DNA of 64,000 bases, from positions 1-64,000 of IMG/VR virus record IMGVR_UViG_3300046786_000226. The stretch is one strand, 5' to 3'. Source of the stretch: a virus (Duplodnaviria; Caudoviricetes). Below, piece after piece: positions 6,389 through 37,579 of this stretch. The position numbers were made by a program, and so were the translations under genes. The first letter of the stretch is position 1; every line of letters begins with the position of its first letter. The notes below the pieces were generated by a model, which was given only the letters and a program-made list of their open reading frames with translations, was not told the DNA's origin and did no database searches.

Positions 6389-6451
6389 GCTAATATTTAA
6401 CATTATCTATCAAATACAAAATAACAATTATTAGTCACTAAATATTTGGAT

Positions 6452-8299: not shown

Positions 8300-8344
8300 T
8301 TTTACTCACTAAATAAATTATAAAATATTTACCGGGCACATTCA

Positions 8345-10080: not shown

Positions 10081-10081
10081 G

Positions 10082-11263: not shown

Positions 11264-11315
11264 AAATATTATTGGAAGCTATTCGCTTCTATTTATAAAA
11301 AGAATCCTAATACAA

Positions 11316-15894: not shown

Positions 15895-16224
15895 TTAAGA
15901 CTTCTTGTCAACTTTTTTACGCTTTTTTGGTAAAATGTCAGCATCTGCTACAAATTTGGATTCTTCGTCCATTTGTTGCCCAATATTTTTACACAAATCG
16001 GTAAACCATTTGTCGACGATTTCTTCTTCATTATTACCTTGATAATTGTGTTCTTTAAGGAATGTAATAAAAGCAGGGTTCCATTCCAACTCCATAAAGC
16101 CTTGTCGAGGATTGTTTTCGTCAAAGTCCGTGTTGACTACACGAACTTGAGGTTCCTTACTTTCTTTCCAATTCTTGCCTGGTTCTTCTTTTTTGGCAAA
16201 TAGATTTTTTAGTTTGTTTAGCAT
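15895..16224 (-). CDS. hypothetical phage protein
   Basis: Start MLNKLKNLF overlapping metK stop (TAATG). Confidence 0.7.
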   Translation of the reverse strand: MLNKLKNLFAKKEEPGKNWKESKEPQVRVVNTDFDENNPRQGFMELEWNPAFITFLKEHNYQGNNEEEIVDKWFTDLCKNIGQQMDEESKFVADADILPKKRKKVDKKS

Positions 16225-17324
16225 TAGAATAAATCCACTTCTTCCCATGGCAAATATGATTTACCAAAATGTCCGTAATTTGTTGTCAAGCTATAAATGG
16301 GACGGAACAAGTTGAAACGATCAATGATGCCTTTTGGTGTCAAGTCGACATTATCTTGTACCCACTTGGTTAAATCTCTACTCTGTTTAGTATCGGCAGT
16401 TTCGATATAAAAACTCATTGGTTGTTCTAGACCAATAGCATAACTAATTTGACAAGTAGCCCATGGCGCTTGCCCACTTGCTACGATGTTCTTAGCAATG
16501 TAACGCATCATGTACGCGGCAGACCTATCAACTTTCGTAGGATCTTTACCACTAAACGCACCACCACCATGGGGACTATAACCACCATAAGTATCAACAA
16601 TGATTTTTCTTCCGGTGAGTCCAGTGTCACCATCAGGACCGCCAATGACAAAACGACCAGTAGGATTGATAAAAAATTTAGTGTTGTCATCTAAGTATTT
16701 CCCGGGCAATATATTTCTAATAAAGCCGCCTACTATTTTACGAACAGATTCGATGTCTGTATCTTCGCTATGTTGTGTACTACAAACCACTTTAGCAACA
16801 CGTTTAGGAGTACCGTCATCGTTGTATTCAAATGTAACTTGACTCTTGGCATCTGGGCCTAAGAATTTCAGCAAACCATTCTTACGTGCTTCAGTTAGTC
16901 CTTCAACAATACGATGACTCCAATAAATTGCGCTAGGCATATATGTAGAAGTTTCATTACAAGCATAACCAAACATTAGGCCTTGGTCGCCGGCACCAAA
17001 GTTATCTGTGCCTAGTGCAATGTCGGCACTTTGTCCATGTAGCAAGTTAGTAATTTCAACTGTGCGCCAATCAAATCCGCTTTGTTCATAGCCGACATCT
17101 TTAATGACTTTACGAATAGCAACTTCGACTTCTTCGTTATGTAAAATGCCTTTGTATTCTCCAGCTACTACAACACGATTGGTAGTAACTAATGTTTCAC
17201 AGGCACAACGAAGTGCTGGATTTTGTTGCGACATAACTAAGTCTAAAACAGCATCACTGATAGCATCAGCAATTTTATCTGGGTGTCCTTCTGACACGCT
17301 TTCGCTAGTAAACAAATAACTCAT
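16224..17324 (-). CDS. metK: S-adenosylmethionine synthetase
   Basis: FTSESVSEGHPDKIAD, GAGDQGLMFG, GLTGRKIIVDTYGG, GGAFSGKDPTKVDRS. Confidence 0.97.
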   Translation of the reverse strand: MSYLFTSESVSEGHPDKIADAISDAVLDLVMSQQNPALRCACETLVTTNRVVVAGEYKGILHNEEVEVAIRKVIKDVGYEQSGFDWRTVEITNLLHGQSADIALGTDNFGAGDQGLMFGYACNETSTYMPSAIYWSHRIVEGLTEARKNGLLKFLGPDAKSQVTFEYNDDGTPKRVAKVVCSTQHSEDTDIESVRKIVGGFIRNILPGKYLDDNTKFFINPTGRFVIGGPDGDTGLTGRKIIVDTYGGYSPHGGGAFSGKDPTKVDRSAAYMMRYIAKNIVASGQAPWATCQISYAIGLEQPMSFYIETADTKQSRDLTKWVQDNVDLTPKGIIDRFNLFRPIYSLTTNYGHFGKSYLPWEEVDLF

Positions 17325-17674
17325 TCTTTTCCTTGTAATTCTTCTATTACAGTTGTAATAGTATTAGCGACATTCAATGCCGCTTGTTTGCCTAAGATCA
17401 GTGAATGTTGATCTTCTCTATAACCATGTATTAAAATATCCCAAGCGGCTTTAATACGACTAAAGCCTGGTTTCCACAATGGCGTGGTAGTATTTACATA
17501 AAAAGTCATTTCAATGTCTTGCGTATCTTTATCACCATTTAGTTCAATCCACATATGAACTTGGTGATCTCCGTCATGACAATCGCAGGCAATGGTATAC
17601 GCTTTGCTTTTACCGTAATCTGCGTCAAACATTATACCTGCCGCAGGTGTTTGTGCTTTCATTACTTGCCCCAT
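17321..17674 (-). CDS. hypothetical protein
   Basis: 117 aa, CDC..DH motif. Confidence 0.7.
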   Translation of the reverse strand: MGQVMKAQTPAAGIMFDADYGKSKAYTIACDCHDGDHQVHMWIELNGDKDTQDIEMTFYVNTTTPLWKPGFSRIKAAWDILIHGYREDQHSLILGKQAALNVANTITTVIEELQGKE

Positions 17675-18522
17675 CCATTACTCCAGATGTCAACGTGTAG
17701 TCTAGGACTATAACGATAACCTTTTTCTAAGGCAATGTCAGCAATGTGTTTACTGTTAGCAAAGTAAGCCGCATCTGTACCGCCTACAGGCATAACAAAT
17801 ACTGGGCCTTTGAAGCCTGCTTCACGATACTCTGCAGTAGCGGCATCTACTTCTTTAAAGTCTTCTAGAGTATCAACTACAAACTTCAAATAAGTAAAAC
17901 CACGTGTTTGATATTCTACAACTACTTCGGGACAGATAGCATCCTTCCACAGTTCGCCACTGGCACTTAGCTTAGGACTAACGCTAAATGTAATTTGATC
18001 TTTGCGTAGATGATAGTCGTTCATTAAGAATCTTTTAAAATCCTCATGCAAGTGTTGAGTGCCGTTTGTCTCGAAAGTTAAGTTTTCGAGATCGCGCATC
18101 TTGTTTTCACTTAGCAAATCTGGATACAGTTGTTGCCAACCCAGCAAAGGTTCACCGCCAGTAATAACAAGATGAACGTCGTTGCCATTGTCTTGTTTCC
18201 AAGCATGATTGGGGGTTAACTCGAGCATCTTATCAATAGCTTCGTCGATACTGTAATACGGACTTAGGTGTTTAAATGCAGGATGCCATGACGCATAACT
18301 GTCACAGCCTGTTTGTGCCAATGGCAAATCCATAAAAGTTGGATATAGATTAACAACTTGAGCAATGTCATCTGGCTCTGTAGTTTTCAAGCCTCGCTCT
18401 AGGCCAAAGCCCGGGCATTTGAAGTTACAACCAAATGTTCTAAAAAATACTGAAGGTACGCCAATAAAGCGACCTTCGCCTTGTGCGCTATAAAAGATTT
18501 CACTTACTTTAATTTTATCCAT
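17662..18522 (-). CDS. queE: 7-carboxy-7-deazaguanine synthase (radical SAM)
   Basis: SEIFYSAQGEG, FFRTFGCNFKC...CDS, VITGGEPL, FETNGT, SVSPKL, SPRLH. Confidence 0.9.
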   Translation of the reverse strand: MDKIKVSEIFYSAQGEGRFIGVPSVFFRTFGCNFKCPGFGLERGLKTTEPDDIAQVVNLYPTFMDLPLAQTGCDSYASWHPAFKHLSPYYSIDEAIDKMLELTPNHAWKQDNGNDVHLVITGGEPLLGWQQLYPDLLSENKMRDLENLTFETNGTQHLHEDFKRFLMNDYHLRKDQITFSVSPKLSASGELWKDAICPEVVVEYQTRGFTYLKFVVDTLEDFKEVDAATAEYREAGFKGPVFVMPVGGTDAAYFANSKHIADIALEKGYRYSPRLHVDIWSNGWGK

Positions 18523-20015: not shown

Positions 20016-20211
20016 TATGCTCTTCTACTTTCCAAAGATTGATACTTTGGTTTATTGTGTTGTCTCTTGTAGAATAGTTAGGATCGTTTTTTGCTACATA
20101 GGCAATTCTAACTTCTACATTTAGATTTTGTAGCTCTAACATAATATCATTTACTTTAGCTACAAGATCTTTAAGAGCATCGACTTTAGATACTATTACA
20201 GGGTCTTTCAT
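20002..20211 (-). CDS. hypothetical protein
   Basis: 69 aa. Confidence 0.65.
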   Translation of the reverse strand: MKDPVIVSKVDALKDLVAKVNDIMLELQNLNVEVRIAYVAKNDPNYSTRDNTINQSINLWKVEEHNGYL

Positions 20212-20957
20212 TTTGATGCCCAGTCTTGTTGTAGTTTGATATTATCAAAAAACTCTTTCTTTGCACCTGGATCAGTTTTAAATGATCCTTTTAATACTGT
20301 AGTCTGTGTTAAACTAGAGTGTGCCATAATACCACGATTCTCACAGCATCCATGTACTGCTTGAATATAAACACCTAAGCTCTTGGCTCCTGTAGCTTTT
20401 TCGATTTCCCTAGCAATGTCATTAGCAAGTTCCTCCTGGAGAGTACCTCTTCGGGCGCACCACTGGGCGATTCTTGTGTACTTTGAAAGTCCGATGAGTT
20501 TCTCAGCGGCAATAATACCAATATAAGCAACGCCACTAACGGGTTGGTGATGATGGCTACACATACTGCGAAGCTCACTGCGAACAACAAGCATGCCTTC
20601 ATAACGATCTTGCGTGTCGTTTGGAAATGCCGTTGCGTCTGGTCCTGGTTCATATCTACCTGCCATAATTTCATTAAAGTACATTTTGGCAAGTCGTCTT
20701 GCAGTACCTTTACTATTAGGGTCTGTTTCCCTGTCAATAAGCAAACGATCCAATACTAATTCAAAAGCTTCTGTGGCTTCGTCAATTAGTTGTTCTTTGT
20801 TATGGTCGTTAACATATTCGCTGATGTTATCACCTGCCCAGAAACGTTTATTGTCACGTCTCATTTTTGCGCGAAGATAGTTACCTAAGTATTTTTCTTC
20901 TTGATATCCGCCATCACCTGCCATTGCGTCCAGGCCTGTTTCTTTTTTGTCTGTCAT
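20208..20957 (-). CDS. folE: GTP cyclohydrolase I
   Basis: TARRLAKMY, RSMCSHHHQP, GLSKYTRIA, QEELANDIA, HGCCENRG. Confidence 0.95.
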   Translation of the reverse strand: MTDKKETGLDAMAGDGGYQEEKYLGNYLRAKMRRDNKRFWAGDNISEYVNDHNKEQLIDEATEAFELVLDRLLIDRETDPNSKGTARRLAKMYFNEIMAGRYEPGPDATAFPNDTQDRYEGMLVVRSELRSMCSHHHQPVSGVAYIGIIAAEKLIGLSKYTRIAQWCARRGTLQEELANDIAREIEKATGAKSLGVYIQAVHGCCENRGIMAHSSLTQTTVLKGSFKTDPGAKKEFFDNIKLQQDWASK

Positions 20958-21001: not shown

Positions 21002-21030
21002 AGTATACAGTAGTATTTAGGTTAAGTCAA
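21002..21030 (-). promoter_or_regulatory. sigma70-type promoter for folE with embedded TAAATA
   Basis: TTGACT-N17-TATACT. Confidence 0.6.
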
Positions 21031-21816
21031 GCGAATTTTATTATTCTTTGCGACTGCGGTTGCCAAAACACTTAGGTCTTGTTCGCACCATTCTGCAAAT
21101 TTCAACATAGCATTGGTGTCTTTTGGAAAGCACATACCACCAAAACCATAATCGCCATCTGGACCTGGAACTTGCATATGACTATTACCAAGTCGTTTAT
21201 CTTGACTAACTGCTTGTTTAATGTTATCCCAATTACATTGGTTATCTTCTGCTAGTTTGGCCATTTCGTTCATAAAAATAACTTTGGTAGCTAGAAAACT
21301 GTTTATAGTATATTTGGCAAAACTAGCTTCGCCAATACTACAATGTGTCACGGAATTTAGATTTGGTTGGCTCATGCGAATGATTCGTTCTGCTTCATTT
21401 CTATATGCCATAGTTGAACCACCAATGATAGCAAAACTTCCATTAACATAATCATTGACAGCATTTGCCGCAGTTAAGAATTCTGGAGCATGTACTAAGT
21501 TGGTATATGAGCATTGCAATCCTATATATACACTGGGTATAGCAGTTACTTTACTAATGATAACACCTTTAAAGCGTACCATTTCTAATTGCTTTAGAAC
21601 ATCAACTAATATACTAGTATCACAGCTTCCATCATTACGTTGCGGACTTGGTACACAGACAAATACCGCGTCGTAGTTTATTATGTCATTATATGTTGCC
21701 ATCCAACCTTTAGCTGGGTCTATGGCCAATAGTTCTACATCAGAGTTATTGATAAAAGAACTATGTATAGCACCGCCGACAAAACCCATTCCTATGATTG
21801 CTACTTTTGTTTTCAT
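21022..21816 (-). CDS. ugd: UDP-glucose/GDP-mannose dehydrogenase-family protein lacking the C-terminal domain
   Basis: IIGMGFVG, VCVPSP, PEFLT, KYTINSFLATKVIFMNE, GFGGMCFPKD; only 264 aa. Confidence 0.85.
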   Translation of the reverse strand: MKTKVAIIGMGFVGGAIHSSFINNSDVELLAIDPAKGWMATYNDIINYDAVFVCVPSPQRNDGSCDTSILVDVLKQLEMVRFKGVIISKVTAIPSVYIGLQCSYTNLVHAPEFLTAANAVNDYVNGSFAIIGGSTMAYRNEAERIIRMSQPNLNSVTHCSIGEASFAKYTINSFLATKVIFMNEMAKLAEDNQCNWDNIKQAVSQDKRLGNSHMQVPGPDGDYGFGGMCFPKDTNAMLKFAEWCEQDLSVLATAVAKNNKIRLT

Positions 21817-22283
21817 TTTATTTCCTTGATCATTTCTGCGTGAGCCACACGTTTGCGTAGATTGCTAGAACTAAAGCTATGATCACGTTGGTTGAATACT
21901 AACTCAATGCCTCGGTCATAACAAATATCTCTGCCTGTAAAATCCTTGTGTTCATATTCAACGCCAAGAATACGAACATCAATGGGTAATGTAAGTAGAA
22001 TATCTTCAAGATCTTTTTCAGTTTGGTATACTACAGTTTCATCGACATAGCGAGTAGCTGCCAATTGTATTTGTCGTTCAACAATACTTTGTACTGGCGG
22101 GTTCTTACTTTCTGGTCTATCAATAGTAGGATCTGTTTGCAGGCCAGCAATTAAGTAATCACAATGATTCTTTGCTTCTGCTAGCATAGCAATATGCCCG
22201 GCATGTAGTAAGTCGAATGTACTAAAGGTAATCCCTATCTTTAGTCCTTTGGCTTTTAAATCTTTAACTTTGTTGAATATCAT
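21813..22283 (-). CDS. cytidylyltransferase (TagD-like)
   Basis: STFDLLHAGH, IAGLQTDP, RDHSFSSS. Confidence 0.85.
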   Translation of the reverse strand: MIFNKVKDLKAKGLKIGITFSTFDLLHAGHIAMLAEAKNHCDYLIAGLQTDPTIDRPESKNPPVQSIVERQIQLAATRYVDETVVYQTEKDLEDILLTLPIDVRILGVEYEHKDFTGRDICYDRGIELVFNQRDHSFSSSNLRKRVAHAEMIKEIK

Positions 22284-22614
22284 TTGTTTCTGGTCCTGCT
22301 GTAACTAATGCTTTAATCATTTCTAAGTGATTATACGCTTCATCTAGTGCTGGGTATTTACTACGCAAGTTCTTAAGTTCTTCTTCCTCTTGCATCTTTT
22401 TCATTACCCAATTCCCGATAACATTTATATCATAGGTACCGCTGTTTTGAATTTGAACAGTATTATCTATTCGTTGCCAAGTACTGCCTGTGCTAACTTC
22501 AAAGCATTTAGTGGCGCCATTCCATTGAACTGCACCTGTAATACTTGGTTGATTATAACTAGTATCTATTTGATACCATCCAGGAGTAGATCCATAACTT
22601 TGTATTTTAATCAT
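22264..22614 (-). CDS. hypothetical phage protein
   Basis: 116 aa. Confidence 0.7.
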   Translation of the reverse strand: MIKIQSYGSTPGWYQIDTSYNQPSITGAVQWNGATKCFEVSTGSTWQRIDNTVQIQNSGTYDINVIGNWVMKKMQEEEELKNLRSKYPALDEAYNHLEMIKALVTAGPETNDIQQS

Positions 22615-23516
22615 AGTTGTATTTCCGTTTCTAAATTTTCAAAAGGCCTGTCAAAGAATTGTCGATAGATTAAACCATCGTTCTTTTGTTTTAAGAATTC
22701 TTCAAATTCTAAGACCATATGATCTGTGTATTCAAATCCAGTTTGTTTTTTGCGATCAATAAGATCCGGATATGCTTCTCTGTATCCTTCTATCTTTGTA
22801 GAATTTACTCCAAGCTTACCTTTAAACTTATCACTGACTAATTGTTGACACCATTTTGTTTTTGTATATGACATTACCAAACCAGGTGTCCATTTAAACC
22901 ATTCACCAACTGCGGGCTTGTTAATTGTTTTAATAAACTTACTCCATGCTACGTCATGTTCCCAGCATCTTACAGCCCACGATCCTTTTGTTGTATAGTC
23001 GTCATTTATTCTATGTATAGAAAGGTCACTGGCACCTAATATTGGTAATCCATCTGTTTGTTCTAAAAAACTACAATAAGGTAATGCCCTGGGTCTATCA
23101 ATTTGTGCTAGCTCTGCTAACCTTTCGGCATCTGCAGAAAAGAACTTTTCTAAATTAAAATCAATGATTTTATAGTCAACACCTAACATTGAACATATAG
23201 TTACAGCATAGCTTACATCATATATGTTATAATCCTTTTCATATCTATAGATATAGATATTTGGTTTGGCACCTGCAGCCAAAAAAGATCTAAGCATAAT
23301 GTCGCTGTCTAGACCGCCGCTAAATAATATGCTGGGTTTATCAGTGTAATGATCCATTACACTCTTTGCGGCATTTATAAGTTCTTCTTTAAATGATAAA
23401 GGTTTGTTATCATACCCGCAAGAAAAACTGGTAGTAAATTTTTTACCAATACTTTGACTGCCGAATAAGTCAGCATCATAAAACCACTTATACCAATTGT
23501 TTTCACTGGTCCACAT
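22611..23516 (-). CDS. PP-loop / asparagine synthase-like protein
   Basis: SFKEELINAAK, ILFSGGLDSDIM. Confidence 0.7.
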   Translation of the reverse strand: MWTSENNWYKWFYDADLFGSQSIGKKFTTSFSCGYDNKPLSFKEELINAAKSVMDHYTDKPSILFSGGLDSDIMLRSFLAAGAKPNIYIYRYEKDYNIYDVSYAVTICSMLGVDYKIIDFNLEKFFSADAERLAELAQIDRPRALPYCSFLEQTDGLPILGASDLSIHRINDDYTTKGSWAVRCWEHDVAWSKFIKTINKPAVGEWFKWTPGLVMSYTKTKWCQQLVSDKFKGKLGVNSTKIEGYREAYPDLIDRKKQTGFEYTDHMVLEFEEFLKQKNDGLIYRQFFDRPFENLETEIQL

Positions 23517-23940
23517 GTTTATATGTTTTGAATACGATATCCCATATAGGAAAAAATAACCCGTAATTTTTAGTTGGGTGTCTATGATGTATTAGATGCC
23601 ATTTTCCTGTACTAGCTAATGGAATATTAACATTTTTGTTATGTTCAAATCTTTCTTGAAAGAAAGCCGCCCATACATAATAGAATACACTGATCCACCA
23701 TTGCCCTGTAATTAAACTAAACAACAAAGTAGGAATGACTTCGGTTACATATAAATCCAATGTACTGATCCACGTATCATTGAACAAAAATAAATTATTC
23801 CAATGCCATCCAGGCGAACCATGTCTAACTATATAGCTATGATGATCCCAATGCCATTCTTTAACATATGGAGTTTTATGCGCTATACGATGTACCCAGT
23901 ATAATACAAAGGTCCATAACAAGAAATATATAATAATCAT
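23503..23940 (-). CDS. fatty acid hydroxylase / sterol desaturase-family membrane enzyme
   Basis: His boxes YWVHRIAH, HWDHH, HLIHHRH, NYGLFFPIWDIVF. Confidence 0.85.
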   Translation of the reverse strand: MIIIYFLLWTFVLYWVHRIAHKTPYVKEWHWDHHSYIVRHGSPGWHWNNLFLFNDTWISTLDLYVTEVIPTLLFSLITGQWWISVFYYVWAAFFQERFEHNKNVNIPLASTGKWHLIHHRHPTKNYGLFFPIWDIVFKTYKHVDQ

Positions 23941-24995
23941 TTTAGATTATTTAATAAATCTTTCGCACTAAAGAAATTCATAGTTAAACTGGCCGCTTGT
24001 TCTTTAAGTTGGCGTAAGCGAGTATGATAATAATCCATGTGCGTCATAATGGCTCGGCACAAGTCTGGACGATAAACATTGTAAGCGTCCCATGATTCTG
24101 TCCATTCGCTTTTGTATTTAAATACATCAAAATACATTTCACTATAGCTTAATCTATCTGGCACCATGGGTATAGCATCTACAACTGCACCTTCATAACA
24201 GCCAATGCCCAGTGTTTCTTGTAGGCTACAACTAAATACCATCTTAGCTTGACCTAACAATGTGTGATACTGTTTCTTAGTTAACTGTTCATCTTGACAA
24301 ACAACAAACTTATATTGTGGCAAGTGAGTTGCCAAGTCGCGGAAGATTTCAACTTGTTTTTCAGGAGCAATACGATGCGGGAACAAAATAAGATCTTGTT
24401 TGTTTAAATTCTTAAATGGCTTTAGAGTCTCGTCCATATACTCCATGGGCCAGCCAGTGCGTATAACTTTGTTGTCTTCTAATTCCACTGTCTCGTCATG
24501 GAATAAGTTATCAGAGAACATGTTAATATGAAAGTCTGTAGCAAAGTAGTTATGATCGAAGGCATGGAAGTAACTTTTCTCTGCGTGTCTAACCCAAGGA
24601 GCATCTCCTACTAAACGTCCGAGAAAGTCTTGTGGGTCATAGCTACCGGCGTGCCATAAGCCGTGTGTAACTACAGGAATACCTAGTAGTTCACTCATGT
24701 ACTTTAAGTTTATGATACCAGGGTGCCAAGCATCAGTAAAGATAAAGTGATCGCCGGGAGAAACGGCTCCGTCACAAAATAAACGGCCCATCTGTTCAAC
24801 TTGAGCTGACTTATATATGTTAGTACCGCCAAAATTAAGAAAAGCACCAGGAGTAGTGGCATTAGGAATATCTTCAGGGCCAGAAATAATTTGAACATTG
24901 TGTCCTGCCTTTCTAAGTAATTGTGGAACATGATCTTTCCACTGTCCAGTGTAGCGTGTGCTCACTGATTCTAAATCAATTAAATAAATTTTCAT
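23937..24995 (-). CDS. GT-B glycosyltransferase
   Basis: FPHRIAPEKQ, YHTLLGQAKMVFSCSLQETLGIGCYEG, PDRLSYSEM. Confidence 0.8.
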   Translation of the reverse strand: MKIYLIDLESVSTRYTGQWKDHVPQLLRKAGHNVQIISGPEDIPNATTPGAFLNFGGTNIYKSAQVEQMGRLFCDGAVSPGDHFIFTDAWHPGIINLKYMSELLGIPVVTHGLWHAGSYDPQDFLGRLVGDAPWVRHAEKSYFHAFDHNYFATDFHINMFSDNLFHDETVELEDNKVIRTGWPMEYMDETLKPFKNLNKQDLILFPHRIAPEKQVEIFRDLATHLPQYKFVVCQDEQLTKKQYHTLLGQAKMVFSCSLQETLGIGCYEGAVVDAIPMVPDRLSYSEMYFDVFKYKSEWTESWDAYNVYRPDLCRAIMTHMDYYHTRLRQLKEQAASLTMNFFSAKDLLNNLK

Positions 24996-25001
24996 AGTTA
25001 T

Positions 25002-25030
25002 ATTGTAAGACCTTATAAGATGATTGTCAA
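25002..25030 (-). promoter_or_regulatory. sigma70-type promoter
   Basis: TTGACA-N17-TACAAT upstream of the glycosyltransferase. Confidence 0.75.
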
Positions 25031-25046
25031 TAAATACTTTACCATT

Positions 25047-25979
25047 ATGAACGAATCCAAAAACATCGAACGCATATTAGAGCTAGCAAAAACACAGGAC
25101 TGGTTACAGTTTCCCGGAGGCTCCGGAGGCGAGTTTTTTGCTTTGCTTATTAGTAAATATTCTCCTATTTATGAAAGCTTAACAAATATTACAACTGTTA
25201 ATAGTGATAATAGAACATTAATTGAACTGCCTAAATTTTTTAAGATGATGGCTAGTGTGCCTGCATTAGATGGAGACATAACAAACCTTTGTTCAGGAAT
25301 AATTCGAGATTCCAAAATATTAAGATTAGATTTGGATAAAGAATTGGCTATCGCAGAAGAGTTTATCAAAGATAAAAAGTACTTATTGAGAATACATTAT
25401 TCGTTCAATGACTATTTTAATAAACAAAATACATTTGCAATCATACCAGATAGTTTATTATGGCTAGAATATACTTCGTTGATGTGCGTAATAAAGGCAG
25501 GCGGCTATAAAATAAACCATGAACTTGCGTCAATGTATTTCGATGAATATACAATCAAACGCGGCACTGATAGAAAAAGATATGACGATGCGTTAGACTG
25601 GATGTTACAAAATAATCACAGCGAAATTTATTTCGGTCATATACAATGTATCGAGTATATGGAAGAAATAGGCGGTTATAAAGACGTATTTGCTATGTCT
25701 TTAAAAGATATATACGATTTCTTTGCCAACAAGATTAACAACAATATAGATGTACCGTGGTGTCAAGTTTACCATCCAGAGTTTATAACTCAAACACAGA
25801 CTTTACTAACAGACCGTATGAACATTATTAATTATACTAAGATATTCGAAAAAGATTATTTGGAAAGCATGTTTAACATAACAGATCCTGCTTTTCACGA
25901 TGAGTTAATTGCTTGGCATGAAAAAAACATTGCGTTAATTAAATCGCATGGATTTAATACAGATCAGTTTATCTTATGA
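25047..25979 (+). CDS. GGSGGEF-family protein 1 (sulfotransferase/P-loop-like)
   Basis: FPGGSGGEFFALLISKYS; C-terminal YLESMF..WHEKN shared with two paralogs. Confidence 0.65.
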   Translation: MNESKNIERILELAKTQDWLQFPGGSGGEFFALLISKYSPIYESLTNITTVNSDNRTLIELPKFFKMMASVPALDGDITNLCSGIIRDSKILRLDLDKELAIAEEFIKDKKYLLRIHYSFNDYFNKQNTFAIIPDSLLWLEYTSLMCVIKAGGYKINHELASMYFDEYTIKRGTDRKRYDDALDWMLQNNHSEIYFGHIQCIEYMEEIGGYKDVFAMSLKDIYDFFANKINNNIDVPWCQVYHPEFITQTQTLLTDRMNIINYTKIFEKDYLESMFNITDPAFHDELIAWHEKNIALIKSHGFNTDQFIL

Positions 25980-26941
25980 TTACAGAACAAGCAGTTAGAC
26001 AATGTATCACTGATATATTTGATCAATATACTTTACATTACCTTGCTTATCAAGGAGGATCAGGCGGCGAGTTTTTAATATCTAAAATCAGACAATACTC
26101 TGAAATTTATAATACTAAGAATACATCATCGACGGTAGAATCGACAAACAGAACAATATTACAGATGAATCATTTTTTATCTGTAATTTATTTTTCAAGG
26201 CTTCATAACGGAAACCTAAGAGATATAAAAGATTTAATATTCACCGAATTAAGCAGGATTGCCAACGGAGATTTAAACTTAGTGTTATCGATGATAGACT
26301 CGACAAACTCGATATTAATTCCCAACAAGGCAAACTTATGTAAATTACATTTAACTTCTAATTCTTATTTTAACAAAGAAAACACATGGTCTATGTACAT
26401 AGACAATAAAGACAGCTTTGATTACGTAAACAAATTAAGATACTTAAAAGTGTTTAAAAATAAATGGACCATTGATAAGATAATAGATAATTATAAAATT
26501 AATTTTTGGAAGCTCAGCGACAAATTAGATATACTAGATAAATTTGCCACTTGGGCAAATAATAAAGGCATTAATGAAATAGAAGAAATATACATCGCTT
26601 GTATGTTTATCGATCATGTATTTTCTGATTTTGAAAATTTTGAAAAGCTATTGTCTGTACCTGCTGACGAATTATACTTACAATATTCATCGGACTTAGA
26701 TGACAGTTATGAAAATCGAAAAGATTTTATGGAAGAAACAACAGCAAATACAAATAGAATCTATTACAGTAAATTACTTGACAAAGGCTATCTAGAAGAT
26801 ATGTTTAAAATATCTAACAGTGACTTCCGTAAGGATTTACTAGAATGGCATGATAAAAATATGAATAATGTTATGTTATTAGACAAAAAGACTTATTCGT
26901 CGACTTCTTCGTCGCCAACATACTCTTTCCAATCAGTATAA
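25976..26941 (+). CDS. GGSGGEF-family protein 2
   Basis: YQGGSGGEFLISKIRQYS; YLEDMF..WHDKN. Confidence 0.65.
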   Translation: MITEQAVRQCITDIFDQYTLHYLAYQGGSGGEFLISKIRQYSEIYNTKNTSSTVESTNRTILQMNHFLSVIYFSRLHNGNLRDIKDLIFTELSRIANGDLNLVLSMIDSTNSILIPNKANLCKLHLTSNSYFNKENTWSMYIDNKDSFDYVNKLRYLKVFKNKWTIDKIIDNYKINFWKLSDKLDILDKFATWANNKGINEIEEIYIACMFIDHVFSDFENFEKLLSVPADELYLQYSSDLDDSYENRKDFMEETTANTNRIYYSKLLDKGYLEDMFKISNSDFRKDLLEWHDKNMNNVMLLDKKTYSSTSSSPTYSFQSV

Positions 26942-27432
26942 ACTTTTCTATCCATCAAGTCGTGTAGACTATGGCACCATACTCCAGGATTGCTATGCCC
27001 CCAAGTTGTGTCATCAATCTTTAGTGTAGCATTGTAATTGTAAAGTTTGAGGTGTGGAAGTTTTACACTGATCATTGGAATGAATGTATTATACTCACAC
27101 CAACCTTCTTCGTTGAATGTATCAGCATATTCTACACCAAAGTCAAGTGTAACCCAATAACCAGCATCTAATAACTCTACAATCATTTTATCCCAAGCTT
27201 TCCAATCATCATAGTCTTTGGGAGTAAAACTTTGACTAGTCCCTAGATAGATATGTCTGATATGTTTGCTAGTATCATTATAAGAATTTTGTTCGTTGAT
27301 GATACTTACAATTTTATCAACGGGTTGAACACCTACTACAAATAGAGTGCGTTCACCATACATAGTAGTACGTTCTACTTCTATGCCGATAAAATAAGTT
27401 GCTGCCTTTCGGCCTACTGTGTCAATTGCCAT
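26893..27432 (-). CDS. hypothetical protein in the deazaguanine/GT locus
   Basis: Start MAIDTVGRK; FIGIEVE, IYLGTSQSF, SNPGVWCHSLHDL. Confidence 0.75.
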   Translation of the reverse strand: MAIDTVGRKAATYFIGIEVERTTMYGERTLFVVGVQPVDKIVSIINEQNSYNDTSKHIRHIYLGTSQSFTPKDYDDWKAWDKMIVELLDAGYWVTLDFGVEYADTFNEEGWCEYNTFIPMISVKLPHLKLYNYNATLKIDDTTWGHSNPGVWCHSLHDLMDRKVYTDWKEYVGDEEVDE

Positions 27433-28327
27433 TATTATTCCAATATATATAACCTCTGCTATAACCTGCAGGGCGGTTAAGGCCGTCAGCAAATGCTTGT
27501 TGCCATTCTGAATCTCTATTATAACCTTTAGTCCAGAAACTGTCAACATTAATGTCGCCACTTTTAATCCACATAGCGGCGTCTTCCATACAATGATAAA
27601 ATCTATCTGTTCGTGGACTTGGGAATATCATAGTACAGGCTTTCCAAAGTAAATTGGAGAAGTCTGTACTAACTTGTTTTTGACTTCCAAATACTACTAG
27701 TGCTTCATTATTTAGAATAGGTTTCTCAAAAACATCTGTCTTACTGCTCAAGTCAATGACTACATCAAATGTACCTTCATAGTCTTGATCTAAGACATCA
27801 CCCCAAAGTTCTTTGTTGCTATTACCTACTACTGTAATATCAAACTCTAAGTGATTAAGCAAGATAGTATTATAAGCAACCCAAGCAAGAAAACCACTGC
27901 CAAGTATTAATAGTCTCTTACCTTCACTAGCCCTTTCAGCCATTTCTCTAATAGGTTGTTGTACTACATTAATTCCACAAGCCACTGGTTCTAAAATATA
28001 TCTAGGATGTGCTTCGGGTACAACGACATATTCATTGACTCTAACATTGTATACATCTGCGTAAGCAGGTTCGCCACGAGTAGCTACAATATCTCCTACT
28101 TGTGTTGTGCCAATGTTTTTACCAACTTTAATTACTCGACCTAAACCTTCGTGTCCTTGCATATTAATAGGCAAAGGACCAAAGTCTCCATTCATCATAT
28201 CGATATCACTGCGACAAACTCCTGTCATGATATTTTGCACAGTAATCTCGTGGTCACCACAATCTGGATTATCCCAAGTAGTTTCTATAAAATTACCCGT
28301 ACCAGTTGTTTGTAGTATTCTTGTCAT
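27422..28327 (-). CDS. zinc-binding MDR dehydrogenase-like protein
   Basis: GVCRSD, QGHEGLGRV, VGDIV, LEPVACG, LILGSGFLA. Confidence 0.85.
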   Translation of the reverse strand: MTRILQTTGTGNFIETTWDNPDCGDHEITVQNIMTGVCRSDIDMMNGDFGPLPINMQGHEGLGRVIKVGKNIGTTQVGDIVATRGEPAYADVYNVRVNEYVVVPEAHPRYILEPVACGINVVQQPIREMAERASEGKRLLILGSGFLAWVAYNTILLNHLEFDITVVGNSNKELWGDVLDQDYEGTFDVVIDLSSKTDVFEKPILNNEALVVFGSQKQVSTDFSNLLWKACTMIFPSPRTDRFYHCMEDAAMWIKSGDINVDSFWTKGYNRDSEWQQAFADGLNRPAGYSRGYIYWNNNGN

Positions 28328-29199
28328 AAATTTTCTATTTGTTTGTGTATCCATATATCCTGTGCAAGTTGTTCTTGCCAGAACTCATTATTATTTAGGT
28401 TAAGAACTGCGTTTTCTATCATTGCTTTATAAGCATCTTCTGGGCATAGACCCAATGGAAACTTGTTGTCATCAAAGCTAATGTAAACATCGTCTGCTTT
28501 ATCGTCTTTCCAATTAGCACTTAGTATCCACTTGGTACCACTATTACTGAATTCGAATTCACAAAAGTCGTCGACATTGTAAGTGCCATTATGATCAACC
28601 CTGCCGTAATCAGTATCAATAATATTCTTGAGTTCATGTCGTTGTATTGCGTTACTGTATAGTTTAGTGCCTTTTGTGTAGTCTGTCAATGCTACATAGT
28701 AACTCAACATGTGTGGAATCAAATCACGACTAACTCCGCCGAATGCCAAATCTTTAGTAGTAAACCAACTGCCAGGATTTGGAATACGATTCTTATTATT
28801 CCAAATAACTTTAACTGTAGTGCTTTTGTCAGCTAGCTCTTTAAATTGTTTAATTGAATCTCTGTATTGATTATTTTTAACCATCATAAAACGAGTCTCA
28901 GGATAATCAACACAGAGCCACCGCCATGCTTCACTGTTAACGACTCCGGGCTTTTCAACAAAAACTATCTTAGTGTGGTTAGCAACTTTTCTTGCTAGTT
29001 CAATGTGTGTAAAGTTTGGTGTACAAATATTTACAGTATCAAATTTACTGTGAACACGGATAGCATCTTCGACACTTGAAAAATCGGCGCCTTTAGATGT
29101 ATCCATGTCAACAGTGATAACCTCATAACCAAGTTCAGTTAGCACAGGCTTATAAACAGCCTGTCCAAAACCTAAGCCAATTATAAGTGCTTTAGCCAT
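28324..29199 (-). CDS. Gfo/Idh/MocA oxidoreductase
   Basis: IIGLGFGQ, ICTPNFTH, VFVEKP, GGVSRDLIPHML. Confidence 0.85.
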   Translation of the reverse strand: MAKALIIGLGFGQAVYKPVLTELGYEVITVDMDTSKGADFSSVEDAIRVHSKFDTVNICTPNFTHIELARKVANHTKIVFVEKPGVVNSEAWRWLCVDYPETRFMMVKNNQYRDSIKQFKELADKSTTVKVIWNNKNRIPNPGSWFTTKDLAFGGVSRDLIPHMLSYYVALTDYTKGTKLYSNAIQRHELKNIIDTDYGRVDHNGTYNVDDFCEFEFSNSGTKWILSANWKDDKADDVYISFDDNKFPLGLCPEDAYKAMIENAVLNLNNNEFWQEQLAQDIWIHKQIENL

Positions 29200-30739
29200 T
29201 TAATGCCTCTGAGAGAATTTCATCAGCTTGATCTTCATCCCAAGCTTCTGCAGCTTCTGCGTCATTGTCATTGCCCTTGTCGATGTCTTCGAACAACATA
29301 CCATGACTGACAGCAGTGGTCTTAAGAGTTTTCTTGCCATTAAGTTCTGCTAACAATGCCTGAGCATTATCTAATTCACTGTATGGAGTTTCACTAGTAA
29401 ACACACGATTGATAAGTTCGACGCCATATATTACTGAACGAGGAACCCAATTGCTTAACTCTGCACTAACACCTTTGGCTTTGCTAAACTTACTAGGATC
29501 TGGTTTATGTAAAACACAGGCAGCATCTAACAATGCGTTGGCACGTTGTACTGATTCGATGTGTTGAAAAACATTATGTCCCATCATCATAAAGTAGCTA
29601 AAGCTATCCCAGCTTGTGCGACTTTCTTTACCGAGCTTGTTTAAATCGCCTGGTTTATAATAACAGATATCACCCATAGTCATTCTGTCGCCAATTGGAC
29701 TAGACCATGGCCACGGAGTTGTATTACCAGCCATACGTCTGTCATCGATAGCTTTGTCCATAATATAACTGAAACGCTTGTTCTGATGAACGTGTTGTGT
29801 GTATACCTGTCCATAAGCAGTAGCTAAGAACGGACTAGCACAGTCAAATGTAATCTTCATGTTAGGATTAACGTGTTCACGAATGTTACGTTGTACGGCA
29901 GTTAACAAACAAGCAAGTTCAAGTTTACTAGTACCCAAGAAGTGAATTACGTCACGACCTGGCTCGAGCAACTTTTCATCGCGTAGTTTGATTAGACGTC
30001 GCAACATCAAGTCCACGTCCTTCATGTTGTTACCACCCATCGCCCAGCCTTCAAATGGATAATGCTTAACAGCTTCATACCAAATCTCAGCATCAACATT
30101 ATTGCCACCTTGTAGAACGTTTAAGAACTTAGTTCGACCTTTGCGATGCTTTAAAAAGAAATCATTGTTAAACAATGTACCTTGTAAGCAGTCGTTAAAA
30201 GTTTTAAGTCCTGTACGTTCTTGGTTAATAGGTGCGGCACTCCAAGTTGGAATATCAAGCACCATACTGTAATCAGCAGTATGTTCTAACCAGTTAAGGA
30301 TGGCCATACGGGTCTTGTCAGCAGTACCAACATATCCTGCATCGCCTTGCTTCTCCCAGAAGCGTTGCCAGTCAAAGTTAATAACACCTTTACCAATTTG
30401 GAATCCACCCGAGTCGCCAAGAATAAAATTATTTTTCTTATCACGTTTTTGAATCATTGATTCTTCAACGTCACTCTTGGCAATATCAAGTTGTGCGTGT
30501 CCAGCAGAGTAAAGTGCGTCTGGGTAGTAGAAGTATGCTTCTTCTTTGTTAAGAAAGTTAAATCCTTCTATGCCATTCTCAAACTCTACTGGGATACGTC
30601 CAGGAGGAACATCCACCCCTGGATTGTTCCGTTCCTTACTGATAAAGGTTTGGTAAAAGCCGCTGATACTCGGAAGGAACACAGCATAATCTTTGTTCCT
30701 TGCTTGTAAATCAACTCTTGCTTTTTTACTTAGTGACAT
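29192..30739 (-). CDS. dpdA: DNA 7-deazaguanine transglycosylase (DpdA, TGT fold)
   Basis: ILGDSGGFQI, SMVLDIP, NVLQG, GWAMGG, IHFLGTS, TFDCASP; same region as queE/folE. Confidence 0.8.
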   Translation of the reverse strand: MSLSKKARVDLQARNKDYAVFLPSISGFYQTFISKERNNPGVDVPPGRIPVEFENGIEGFNFLNKEEAYFYYPDALYSAGHAQLDIAKSDVEESMIQKRDKKNNFILGDSGGFQIGKGVINFDWQRFWEKQGDAGYVGTADKTRMAILNWLEHTADYSMVLDIPTWSAAPINQERTGLKTFNDCLQGTLFNNDFFLKHRKGRTKFLNVLQGGNNVDAEIWYEAVKHYPFEGWAMGGNNMKDVDLMLRRLIKLRDEKLLEPGRDVIHFLGTSKLELACLLTAVQRNIREHVNPNMKITFDCASPFLATAYGQVYTQHVHQNKRFSYIMDKAIDDRRMAGNTTPWPWSSPIGDRMTMGDICYYKPGDLNKLGKESRTSWDSFSYFMMMGHNVFQHIESVQRANALLDAACVLHKPDPSKFSKAKGVSAELSNWVPRSVIYGVELINRVFTSETPYSELDNAQALLAELNGKKTLKTTAVSHGMLFEDIDKGNDNDAEAAEAWDEDQADEILSEALNG

Positions 30740-31082
30740 AACCGCTACCGTTATATTTCATAGTAGTGGCCAAGTCAGGCCAAGCACTCTTATAAAGACC
30801 CACGTGGATCTTTAGTTTCTTGGGAGTACGATCATTAGTAATTTGAATACTAACGTCGTATGTATAGCTATGCTCTTTAAGCATAACTTCGGTGATTTCA
30901 TAACTGTGAATCCACCGATCAGCTCGCATGTCGCTGAGATATGCTTGGAACATATCTGCAGGCAAGTGACCCAAGCCTTCTTGTAAAATGCCGTCATATA
31001 GTTCGGCAATTTTTAACAAGTCGTATTTAATATCATTGATATTAATCATTGCACGACTTACATTGCTATGATATTGATTCAT
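30726..31082 (-). CDS. hypothetical protein
   Basis: Start MNQYHSNV with AAGGTG SD. Confidence 0.7.
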   Translation of the reverse strand: MNQYHSNVSRAMININDIKYDLLKIAELYDGILQEGLGHLPADMFQAYLSDMRADRWIHSYEITEVMLKEHSYTYDVSIQITNDRTPKKLKIHVGLYKSAWPDLATTMKYNGSGYVTK

Positions 31083-31092
31083 AGTTCGCACC

Positions 31093-31467
31093 TTACTTCT
31101 GTTCAAATTGAATGTAGCATCCATTTTCACCATCCTCACTTACTTCTATGGTTACTGCTCTGCCGGGATGGCGAGCATTTATTTGTGTATACAAATCTTC
31201 TGCGATCATCTCGCAACTTTTAAAATCTAATGCTAGTATAGCACCTTTATAAAGATTTTCCAACCAGCGTTTAAATTGAATAAATTCAATGTCACGATCA
31301 TCGTGAAACACTTCAATGGCTACTTTAAAATGGAACATGTGTCTGTGAGGATAGCCGAGAAAGCTAACATCATATTCATCTCCTGTAGCCAAGTTCGGAT
31401 CAGTTAGAGCCGCTGGATATTTGTGAATGCCTTCTTTTTGGAAGGTAACCCAAATCATTTTCTTCAT
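31093..31467 (-). CDS. dpdL: QueD-like T-fold protein, DpdL-type (putative CDG decarboxylase)
   Basis: FLGYPHRHMFHF = LxxxHRHxF, SCEMIAEDL, VSEDGENG; lacks the QueD C...HGH motif. Confidence 0.65.
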   Translation of the reverse strand: MKKMIWVTFQKEGIHKYPAALTDPNLATGDEYDVSFLGYPHRHMFHFKVAIEVFHDDRDIEFIQFKRWLENLYKGAILALDFKSCEMIAEDLYTQINARHPGRAVTIEVSEDGENGCYIQFEQK

Positions 31468-31735: not shown

Positions 31736-32052
31736 TATTCATTCTCCTTGATATTATCCATGTCGCTGAGACCTTGGTGTAGTCTAAATGTATAACCATT
31801 TTCTTCACCAATGATACGAACCATGTTCATAATCATCCATAACTTCCAATCTACTCTGTGTAGATATTCTGTTTGCTTTTTAAGTTCTTCAAGAACTTCT
31901 GTACGTGTATACAAAGCACTGGGATCTGCTGCCGGTTCTTTCGCACTAGCAGTTTTTGCTTTTGCTTTAGCAGGCGCCACTTCTTCTTCAATGTCAATGT
32001 CATTGACAGGAGCAGGCTTGCGCTTCACTGGGGTTAATTTCTTTGTTGCCAT
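31735..32052 (-). CDS. DWKLW-motif hypothetical protein
   Basis: LHRVDWKLW plus K/A/P-rich N-terminus. Confidence 0.7.
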   Translation of the reverse strand: MATKKLTPVKRKPAPVNDIDIEEEVAPAKAKAKTASAKEPAADPSALYTRTEVLEELKKQTEYLHRVDWKLWMIMNMVRIIGEENGYTFRLHQGLSDMDNIKENE

Positions 32053-32789
32053 TATCGTGTATGTCCTGGTAAAATGTAATTATACACACCGATACCGCTA
32101 TCGATAGTAATCATACATGCAACTTGGCTAAAATGTACTGTACATTCGCCGTTCATGCCTAGTTTAAGAATTGACAAGAATTTGTCAATAGGCCAAGCAT
32201 AGCCTTCTTTAATATTACCACTAACGCCTTGGGCAAGTGTCATACGTCCAAAGTGACTGCCAGCAGTATCGCTACCGAAAACAAGAACAAGGTCGTTGTT
32301 CTCAGTTTTAACAGTAAACGTTGGTTCTAACGAAGAGTAAACACTGGCTTTTTGTGCCATTTCGCTTACTTTGCTTTTCTTAGGTTCAAAGCTAACGTCC
32401 CATTTAACACCCTTGAACTTGCTTTGTTGCAGTTGTGTGTCAATGATCTCTTTGCTCATCAAACGATACTTGTCGTTGTTACCATCTGTGTCTTTAAACA
32501 GCAAATAGTCTGGCAATGTTTCGCCATTCTTGTCTACTGTAAGAACTTCTACTGTAGCACCTTCCTTGTTGTAAAGGCCTGTGATACCATTTAGGAAACC
32601 TAAGTTACCTAATCCAACTTCACCAATTAATCCTGCTTCTGGTGATTTTAGTTTTGCGTCTAGTACAACGGTTTTCTTTTCATCACAAGTCCAAATTTCA
32701 GTTTCTGAATCTGTACCTGTAATTTTAGCCAAGTCAAAAAAGCCAAGGCTTGCCGTATGTCTGACAATGTCAAAAATTGTGTCTTTCAA
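32052..32789 (-). CDS. putative DNA polymerase sliding clamp
   Basis: 245 aa, TTG start with AGGAG SD, next to the polymerase, clamp-like alternating beta/alpha pattern ending YNYILP. Confidence 0.55.
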   Translation of the reverse strand: MKDTIFDIVRHTASLGFFDLAKITGTDSETEIWTCDEKKTVVLDAKLKSPEAGLIGEVGLGNLGFLNGITGLYNKEGATVEVLTVDKNGETLPDYLLFKDTDGNNDKYRLMSKEIIDTQLQQSKFKGVKWDVSFEPKKSKVSEMAQKASVYSSLEPTFTVKTENNDLVLVFGSDTAGSHFGRMTLAQGVSGNIKEGYAWPIDKFLSILKLGMNGECTVHFSQVACMITIDSGIGVYNYILPGHTR

Positions 32790-36807: not shown

Positions 36808-37227
36808 TTAATTATTTATCTTTTGCTCAATGGGAGAACTAATACGAAGTATGGTGTTAGTAGTAGAGTAATCACCTACTCTATCATAATAAATTACTTG
36901 TTTACAGTATTGCTCTGCTGTGCTAGGACGATCTTTTTTCCAGTCACTGCCTTTAACATATACGTCAGGGCTGTATAATTTCATTATATCTATAAGCTGT
37001 TCTTTGCTGTCAAAGAATTGTACTTCATCGACTGCTTTAAGATTTAATAAATGAAACTTGCGATCTTCTTGATTGTTAATAGGGCGTGTTTCGCCTTTTA
37101 ATTCTTTAACTCTACGATCTGTGTCTATCGCTATTAGTAAATAATCACCACGACTCTTTGCGTAGTTTAACATTTCGATATGCCCGCGATGCAGGATATC
37201 AAACGTACCATTAACCATTACTCGCAT
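36808..37227 (-). CDS. RfaE domain II-like nucleotidyltransferase
   Basis: NGTFDILHRGH, RVKELKGETRPINNQEDR, YVKGSDW, YSTT. Confidence 0.88.
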   Translation of the reverse strand: MRVMVNGTFDILHRGHIEMLNYAKSRGDYLLIAIDTDRRVKELKGETRPINNQEDRKFHLLNLKAVDEVQFFDSKEQLIDIMKLYSPDVYVKGSDWKKDRPSTAEQYCKQVIYYDRVGDYSTTNTILRISSPIEQKINN

Positions 37228-37579
37228 TTTGACTATCTCCGGGTGCTACTCTATAATTGTCTTCTACGCTGTCAGGAGTACTAACTTCAATAATAGTACC
37301 GGCTTCTAAACAAATTAATTGATGAGGTTGCATGGGCCTATTGCGCCATGTTGTACCTGGTTTAAGTATAGCATCGTGTTGACTGGCATCTTTAGTTTCA
37401 ATGAATACTACTTTAAATAGTCCATCTAACACATACCATGTCTCGTCTTTTTCGGCATGAAAATGCATACTGAATTTAGCACCTTGGTTAAACTTTAATA
37501 GCTTACCGCAGTATTTGTCATTGGTGGCCCAAATGTTTTCCGAGCCCCAGCCCTTGGCTACAAAACCTTCTAATCTCAT
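37211..37579 (-). CDS. cupin (sugar isomerase-like)
   Basis: KGWGSE, SMHFHAEKDETWYVLDG, PHQL, EVSTPDSVEDNYR. Confidence 0.8.
   Translation of the reverse strand: MRLEGFVAKGWGSENIWATNDKYCGKLLKFNQGAKFSMHFHAEKDETWYVLDGLFKVVFIETKDASQHDAILKPGTTWRNRPMQPHQLICLEAGTIIEVSTPDSVEDNYRVAPGDSQNASNG

Follow-up and report, generated by a model that had tools for sequence, protein, structure and literature searches.

The subject of this report is a stretch of 64,000 nucleotides, hereafter the window, which makes up positions 1 to 64,000 of the IMG/VR record IMGVR_UViG_3300046786_000226. This is a 74,821-bp phage entry with a CheckV completeness of 21%, and its source is a giant uncultured phage. In the window, a gene for a putative GT4-type glycosyltransferase (GT) shares a cluster with genes for a DpdA-like protein and for DpdL, a paralog of QueD, and the same three genes are found together in phages of very different hosts and in islands on bacterial chromosomes. 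There is strong support for the view that the GT functions within a deazaguanine DNA-modification system. The best single reading of what this system makes, and one that we consider somewhat probable, is a glycosylated 7-deazaguanine in DNA. A more specific proposal, which could equally well prove right or wrong, is that the GT–DpdL–DpdA triad makes the first glycosylated purine-type base of any genome, possibly as a C-glycoside on a pyrrole carbon.

An initial annotation of the region had named a series of minus-strand open reading frames (ORFs), all of which are present, and had suggested that an unusual sugar or polyol is attached to deazaguanine in DNA or, alternatively, to glycans of the virion or host surface. 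As described below, the GT very probably works with deazaguanine DNA-modification genes, while the sugar on the base stays a prediction drawn from that partnership.

Distribution of the GT in phages

Three samples of IMG/VR loci were seeded with the GTs of three deep clades, those of the window, of phage ACP17 and of phage BUCT-ZZ01. Each clade has at least 555 related stretches in IMG/VR, and 80 loci were sampled from each. Gene frequencies for the window clade are given below over 81 loci, or over the 59 "informative" loci that have more than 5 kb of DNA upstream of the GT. In this clade, the gene order PolB–clamp–DpdA–(Gfo–MDR)–unk26893–DpdL–GT is kept, with FolE further along; unk26893 is a conserved protein of no assigned family. 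DpdA, DpdL and unk26893 are all present in 59 of the 59 informative loci. When all 81 loci are counted, DpdL is found in 75, and FolE lies downstream of the GT in 64.

The other two samples give the same picture. In the sample ranked by similarity to the ACP17 GT, whose GTs are 36–44% identical to that of ACP17, DpdA occurs in 71 and DpdL in 76 of the 80 loci; nearly all the others have the GT near a contig end, but one locus (L121) has no DpdA match despite 7.4 kb of upstream DNA. In the BUCT-ZZ01 clade, DpdL is present in 72 of the 73 loci in which the upstream DNA exceeds 4.5 kb, a single locus lacking a DpdL match, and DpdA is present in 74 of 80, the six others having the GT no more than 860 bp from the contig start.

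Among cultured phages, the GT gene abuts dpdA in the PA5oct-like Wroclawviruses, ACP17, X1 and BCSR5, and lies inside the deazaguanine cluster in Phosso and BUCT-ZZ01; all six have a DpdL homolog. The distribution is nested: each of the 18 records with a full-length GT also has DpdL, and there are 10 DpdL records without the GT, phage phiST among them. The hosts over which the GT–DpdA–DpdL association extends include Pseudomonas, Acidovorax, Xanthomonas, Burkholderia, Sinorhizobium and Synechococcus. The strict co-occurrence of the GT with dpdA and dpdL, which the initial annotation proposed as a test, holds in the three samples, in cultured phages and in the bacterial islands considered next, except for the single loci just mentioned; unk26893 is found only inside the GT–dpdA–dpdL set.

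The region has no megablast match among phages, the X1 GT found no relatives when queried against IMG/VR, and an alignment over nine lineages contained no conserved stretch fit for scanning.

Cassettes in bacterial genomes

When one genome of each prokaryotic species was scanned, compact GT–DpdL–DpdA cassettes were seen on large chromosomal contigs, in many cases with genes for QueD and a protein of 288 residues behind them. They occur in several Magnetospirillum species, a Sulfotelmatobacter metagenome-assembled genome (MAG), Shimia, Sulfitobacter, Pelagibacterium, Azospirillum and others; the scan also turned up MAG contigs of phage-like character that carry this cluster. In Magnetospirillum aberrantis (contig L192:6324-13365), the order is GT–DpdL–DpdA–(114 aa)–QueD–(288 aa), and six other loci (L186, L188, L190, L191, L193 and L195) are arranged likewise. 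The 288-residue protein carries a DND motif, which is DxD-like. The cassettes adjoin a tyrosine recombinase and a histidine kinase/response regulator pair and, in two Magnetospirillum genomes, also a CoiA-like nuclease and an HEPN_LA2681 protein. Searches of the bacterial cassette loci gave no homolog of PolB or of the clamp, and a Pfam and NCBIfam scan of one island showed no phage-like gene among the neighbours. The cassettes could represent a new type of Dpd-like island for modification or restriction, and the base may serve these integrase-associated islands as a self-mark.

The islands bear on a different explanation, namely that the GT and the sugar genes act on some other target, be it another DNA base, tRNA, virion proteins or glycans of the host envelope. 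Phage GT4 enzymes often modify surface glycans, and the window holds several sugar-type genes of a generic kind. Moreover, partial and distant GT4 matches of the type in PhiXhv-12 sit with GlmS and deacetylase genes for amino sugars and away from deazaguanine genes; these, however, belong to another subfamily. The islands, in which no phage structural or replication genes were seen, speak for a function at the level of DNA and against a role in virion or host glycans. The association with DpdA and DpdL across very different hosts and bacterial islands, to which the surface glycans offered as an alternative by the initial annotation are a poor fit, and the location of the GT in a replication module point the same way. 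As for other nucleic acid targets, no pyrimidine hydroxymethylase of the dCMP/dUMP type is evident in five relatives of the window phage (35–70% complete, four of them 61–70%), where the only gene of this kind is a canonical ThyA (349 bits), present in two of the five, and the window has no tRNA genes. We regard a target other than deazaguanine as very improbable.

Features of the glycosyltransferase

The GT belongs to a family of more than 8000 homologs. The initial annotation had called it a GT-B enzyme, a call that rests on its homologs and motifs. The window GT is connected to the X1 GT at E 2e-22 (tblastn) and E 7e-37 (hidden Markov model of the family), and the X1 and BCSR5 homologs exceed the Pfam Glycos_transf_1 cut-off of 26.4 bits, with 45.5 and 42 bits; those of ACP17 and PAC2 are below it. 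Phage and bacterial members alike keep an Arg/Lys pair (HRIAPEK) and the second Glu of an EX7E motif (E268) without exception; the first Glu (E260) varies little or not at all. In GT4 enzymes, EX7E and the Arg/Lys pair bind or use the nucleoside diphosphate (NDP)-sugar. An N-terminal E-x4-RYT motif is also kept in alignments over seven phage lineages and the bacterial members. Judged by these homologs and motifs, the protein is probably a GT of the GT4/GT-B type.

Over the same 54 related loci, median identity is 76% for the GT, 60% for PolB, 48% for unk26893 and 46% for DpdA. That the GT is better conserved than the DNA polymerase is counted in favour of its being part of the modification module.

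The DpdA-like protein and DpdL

The DpdA-like protein has 515 residues and no match, by single sequence or profile, in Pfam (including PF01702, the tRNA-guanine transglycosylase or TGT family), PHROG, NCBIfam or the Protein Data Bank (PDB). Its AlphaFold2 model (pLDDT 84.7), when compared with the PDB by Foldseek, gave a top 50 made up entirely of TGTs (E 2e-8, probability 1.0), and VIA comparison with TGT gave Z scores of 17.7–18.6 over about 300 aligned residues, at a root-mean-square deviation of about 4.5. The model thus predicts a TGT-type (beta/alpha)8 barrel. Within the family, D109 (GDSGGFQ), D162 and D299 (TFDCAS) are shared by all of 24 sequences; by their motifs, D109 and D299 may correspond to TGT Asp102 and Asp280. 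The motifs of the window protein align to DSGGLQ and YDS of the ACP17 DpdA, with an hhalign probability of 53%. Against phiST DpdA3, the hhalign probability of the window family is only 7.7%, which does not place it in DpdA3, and the sizes differ as well, being 424–540 residues in GT-bearing phages and 259 in phiST DpdA3.

It has been reported that the DNA of phage PA5oct resists five restriction enzymes, which points to a modified G, and that a nuclease targeting G-modified phages also attacks PA5oct. Taken with the restriction resistance of PA5oct, the predicted fold and the genomic context lead us to expect that the DpdA-like protein exchanges guanine in DNA.

DpdL has 124 residues. The motif LxxxHRHxF, which replaces the CxxxHGH of QueD, separates DpdL from QueD (PMC10516641); the window protein has LGYPHRHMF, and the motif is kept across 58 aligned sequences. 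Its identity to phiST DpdL is 36% (tblastn, E 2e-11). DpdL has been proposed to be a decarboxylase of 7-carboxy-7-deazaguanine (CDG), with a predicted action on the free base (PMC10516641). In the five relatives, QueC was not found above its Pfam cut-off, and a canonical QueD is encoded elsewhere in three of the five. FolE, QueD, QueE, DpdL and DpdA without QueC is the pattern that Cui et al. tied to DpdL (PMC10516641).

A proposed pathway and the objections to it

We propose that the core is a three-enzyme hypermodification module, made up of a DpdA-type transglycosylase, DpdL and a GT4-type GT. FolE, QueE and the QueD encoded elsewhere would feed this module by the established pathway from GTP to CDG, which DpdL would convert to 7-deazaguanine, as in the published proposal. 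The DpdA-like protein, judging from its fold and context, would swap guanine in the phage DNA for the deazapurine, and the GT would then move a sugar from an NDP-sugar onto it, most likely after insertion. The linkage may be C-glycosidic, at the electron-rich C7 or C8, or may be an ester if CDG itself is inserted. The Gfo–MDR–unk26893 genes, the Ugd-like gene and the gene for the RfaE-II/TagD-like nucleotidyltransferase are optional and may tailor the sugar or supply its donor in some lineages. The modified base would presumably shield the DNA from restriction, and the bacterial islands may employ it to mark their own DNA.

The place of the GT in this sequence is suggested by phage phiST, which has DpdL and DpdA and no GT, and whose DNA is 100% 2'-deoxy-7-deazaguanosine (dDG; PMC10516641). 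Because phiST reaches dDG without a GT, the most plausible point of action for the GT is the product of DpdL and DpdA or a later stage. A variant would have the GT glycosylate the free deazapurine or an intermediate, with DpdA inserting the sugar-bearing base; or the sugar would be a transient handle that is later removed, so that the final base may or may not carry it. The larger size of the DpdA in GT-bearing phages and the predicted action of DpdL on the free base would suit this variant, as would the finding that ACP17 dpdA and dpdL, when expressed in E. coli, gave no dDG, from which the authors suggested that further enzymes are needed (PMC10516641). On the other hand, the known phage DNA glycosyltransferases all act on DNA. 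Queuosine in eukaryotes, too, is glycosylated after its insertion. We consider glycosylation before insertion, or a transient sugar, unlikely.

Several points weigh against a glycosylated deazaguanine as the product. First, 7-deazaguanine has no hydroxyl, and a typical GT4 enzyme is a retaining O-glycosyltransferase, which leaves the acceptor chemistry without an explanation. Second, gene adjacency shows a functional link and does not identify a substrate. Third, the window GT has no Pfam match at E of 0.01 or below and no PDB match by sequence or profile search, so that its assignment as a glycosyltransferase comes through its relatives and motifs. Its AlphaFold2 model reaches a pLDDT of only 49.5, the alignment being shallow, with all sequences at least 75% identical. 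Foldseek searches with this poor model put PimA, GlgM, BshA, MshA and UDP-GlcNAc 2-epimerase on top (E 3e-4 to 1e-3, TM about 0.2), which is a weak hint; T4 AGT and BGT are not among the matches listed, nor were they found by sequence in the PDB. Fourth, in the PA5oct-type phages the Gfo protein has lost EKP and the MDR protein its GxCxxD and GHE zinc-ligand motifs. Last, a short Ugd-like dehydrogenase that accompanies the GT in many loci has a homolog in Campylobacter phage CP220 (L093:7928-9762; 256 residues, 27% identical), two genes after QueE, and the DNA of CP220 is reported to carry dADG without a sugar (PMC10516641). Its presence in a sugar-free dADG phage ties this dehydrogenase to deazaguanine clusters and makes it no evidence for a sugar.

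A different possibility is a GT-like protein that is catalytically silent or does not glycosylate at all, and that serves DpdA as a loader or specificity factor, as DpdB does for the bacterial DpdA; the DNA would then contain plain dDG. A strict pairing with DpdA over very deep divergence would suit an obligate partner protein as well, and the window GT is below every Pfam GT threshold. However, the invariance of the Arg/Lys pair and of the second EX7E Glu, with the first nearly so, would be difficult to reconcile with a protein that has no catalytic role, and phiST converts its DNA to dDG completely without this protein. A non-glycosylating partner is accordingly an improbable explanation, and glycosylated 7-deazaguanine in DNA is the reading that we prefer.

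Gene layout and accessory genes

The features of the cluster and its surroundings are collected in Table 1. Most window genes lie on the minus strand. Neighbouring genes overlap at their start and stop codons through DpdA–Gfo–MDR–unk26893 and again through the run of genes from the GT to the short Ugd-like dehydrogenase, which takes in the FA_hydroxylase protein, the PP-loop ATPase, the 116-residue ORF and the nucleotidyltransferase. The GC content is 0.33–0.36 at 22000-28000 and 0.38–0.40 in the flanks, a dip that matches the variable accessory genes.

Table 1. Positions in the window of the genes of the modification cluster and of genes near it, with the basis of each assignment.
Feature	Position	Strand	Basis
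SAM synthetase (MetK), full-length	16224-17324	-	two genes from the QueE-like gene
QueE-like radical-SAM enzyme (CDG synthase)	17662-18522	-	five QueE NCBIfam models, E 1e-11 to 2e-7, all below cut-off; Pfam Radical_SAM weak
FolE, GTP cyclohydrolase I	20208-20957	-	PHROG E 9e-43; NCBIfam FolE E 4e-37
Short Ugd-like dehydrogenase	21022-21816	-	Pfam UDPG_MGDP_dh_N and central domain
RfaE-II/TagD-like nucleotidyltransferase	21813-22283	-	CTP_transf_like; RfaE domain II E 2e-22, TagD E 3e-15
116-aa ORF	22264-22614	-	
PP-loop ATPase (SGGLDS), weakly QueC-like N-terminus	22611-23516	-	QueC match on PP-loop region only, E 2e-3, below cut-off
FA_hydroxylase-family membrane di-iron protein	23503-23940	-	Pfam FA_hydroxylase E 3e-14
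Putative GT4-type (GT-B) glycosyltransferase	23937-24995	-	homologs and motifs
Two paralogous ORFs, 319 and 321 aa, GGSGGEF motif	25020-26941	+	no family match
unk26893	26893-27432	-	start at 27432 backed by family alignment
MDR zinc-dehydrogenase-like oxidoreductase	27422-28354	-	Pfam ADH_N E 4e-10
Gfo/Idh/MocA oxidoreductase	28324-29199	-	Pfam GFO_IDH_MocA E 5e-8
DpdA-like protein, predicted TGT fold	29192-30739	-	AlphaFold2, Foldseek and VIA
137-aa ORF	30726-31139	-	
DpdL, QueD paralog	31093-31467	-	LxxxHRHxF motif; phiST DpdL homology
Sliding-clamp-like protein	32052-32789	-	homologs in PAC2 and Phosso annotated PCNA or sliding clamp
PolB, family-B DNA polymerase	32910-35555	-	DNA_pol_B E 7e-37
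Second RfaE-II-like nucleotidyltransferase	36808-37227	-	CTP_transf_like E 2e-16
Cupin	37211-37579	-	Cupin_2, MannoseP_isomer and WbuC-type cupin matches, weak

The initial annotation had read the neighbouring sugar genes as a supporting cast for the GT. Its Gfo/Idh/MocA and MDR oxidoreductases are confirmed by their Pfam matches, but the inference was an over-reading, since the Gfo–MDR pair is present in about a third of the informative loci (20 of 59), the cytidylyltransferase in 7 of 81, and the Ugd-like protein has no UDP-binding domain. The gene list was also incomplete, the FA_hydroxylase protein, the PP-loop protein (each in 4 of 81 loci), the 116-residue ORF and the two plus-strand paralogs having been left out. 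Gfo, MDR, the short Ugd, the nucleotidyltransferase, the PP-loop protein and the FA_hydroxylase protein are accessory to the system. The plus-strand GGSGGEF paralogs, antisense between unk26893 and the GT, are seen in 2 of 81 related loci, and they look like a recent insertion that split the cluster and lies outside the system.

In environmental members, the Gfo family keeps its Rossmann motif GxGxGx and (V/I)EKPG (21 sequences), and the MDR family keeps the GxCxxD and GHE zinc ligands and GSGFLA (23 sequences). In phage PAC2 (L092:4224-6501), Gfo, MDR and unk26893 occur in the same order, at 31%, 39% and 43% identity, 28 kb from the DpdA–GT–DpdL cluster.

The protein unk26893, rightly seen as a conserved one by the initial annotation, has 170–180 residues and 2198 homologs, and a profile search of 1.84 billion representatives gave 664 clusters at 50% identity; the family alignment also confirms its start. 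It has no Pfam or PDB match, and its longer fused forms contain no informative domain. The ESM Atlas returned nothing for it, and for a homolog it returned faint glycoside-hydrolase-like leads (0.80–0.81) that are at chance level. The neighbours annotated "glycosylase" in Phosso and "epimerase-domain" in PAC2 were considered as relatives and proved to be unrelated on comparison. Among cultured phages, unk26893 is confined to the PA5oct-like phages and ACP17. A comparison with DpdM and DpdN had also been suggested; in a pathway without QueC, there is no preQ1 for these to act on.

The Ugd-like gene had been described as truncated. It is instead a member of a stable family of 252–271 residues, with a Rossmann motif and the catalytic cysteine of GGxCFPKD kept in 36 sequences, and not a broken gene. 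It consists of the NAD-binding and central domains (positions 73-295 of 413 in the NDP-sugar dehydrogenase model); the C-terminal UDP-binding domain is absent throughout the family. It is found in 43 of 81 loci, in varying positions. Its use as a sign of UDP-glucuronate supply was rejected, given the missing UDP-binding domain and its presence in the dADG phage CP220; the family may have its role in the chemistry of deazapurines and not in that of UDP-sugars.

The cytidylyltransferase called TagD-like does match CTP_transf_like, with RfaE domain II as its best NCBIfam match, ahead of TagD. The second RfaE-II-like gene and the cupin, which the initial annotation had brought in from 36808-37579, exist as described, but nothing links the pair to the cluster.

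Some further genes deserve mention in their own right. MetK may provide S-adenosylmethionine (SAM) during infection. A nitronate-monooxygenase/IMPDH-like protein and three further PP-loop or unknown proteins, odd cargo for a phage, are encoded at 6446-13147, where 7346-8299 has a weak Asn_synthase match and 11220-13147 encodes two TctC-like solute-binding proteins. In BUCT-ZZ01 (L088:2087-6590), a second GT4-like protein, of 447 residues and with an ESFSFGMFE motif, is encoded directly upstream of DpdA. The cluster of this phage also holds a xanthine-guanine phosphoribosyltransferase, and a phosphoribosyltransferase is found in 26 of 73 related IMG/VR loci (L199-L278); the PA5oct-like phages have a gene with a phosphoribosyltransferase domain at the cluster too.

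Relation to known systems

The closest relative is the phiST DpdA3/DpdL pathway to dDG (PMC10516641), which shares with the system described here FolE, QueE, QueD, the lack of QueC, a DpdL with LxxxHRHxF, a divergent DpdA with the TGT fold and a cluster beside replication genes. The phiST pathway differs in having neither GT nor unk26893 and in its DpdA of 259 residues, whereas here DpdA has 515 and a GT4 protein is its obligate neighbour.

The phage GTs that act on pyrimidines (T4 alpha- and beta-GT on 5-hydroxymethylcytosine, the GT-A and GT-B enzymes linked to 5mYOX, and those of glycosylated 5-hydroxycytosine; 10.1101/2023.12.21.572611; PMC13326640) are likewise clustered with base-modification genes and are presumed to protect from nucleases. 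Their acceptor is a hydroxyl of a modified pyrimidine, while here it would be a purine analogue, and no sequence similarity between them and the window GT was detected. Glycosylation of guanine or deazaguanine is not mentioned in these two papers (10.1101/2023.12.21.572611; PMC13326640), which deal with pyrimidines only. Full-text literature searches found no report of a glycosylated deazaguanine of the kind proposed here.

A precedent for the order of events is found in eukaryotic tRNA, where a TGT-family enzyme inserts a 7-deazaguanine derivative and glycosylation to mannosyl-Q or galactosyl-Q follows in the nucleic acid. That system differs in that it concerns RNA and in that the sugar is placed on the cyclopentenediol, a group that the QueC-less pathway here cannot make. 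Finally, the bacterial Dpd restriction-modification system (DpdA/B/C and DpdD-K, with dPreQ0 or dADG) resembles the islands in its DpdA-based marking of DNA with deazaguanine in genomic islands, and differs from them in that the cassettes here hold DpdL and the GT. In one bacterial island, no neighbour match was named QueC, DpdB or DpdC, although no search was aimed at these.

Implications

If the proposal is correct, a glycosylated deazaguanine would add a new chemical class to the DNA bases found in nature, since the known DNA glycosylations are all on modified pyrimidines. It could explain why the reconstitution with ACP17 dpdA and dpdL failed in E. coli. It could also explain the G modification of PA5oct, a phage that is studied for therapy and that belongs to one of the three sampled clades, and with it what governs the resistance of this phage to restriction enzymes and its sensitivity to the END nuclease. 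The GT–DpdL–DpdA module is carried by hundreds of phages and is very frequent in phage metagenomes from aquatic habitats; being so common, it would affect sequencing bias and the prediction of host range.

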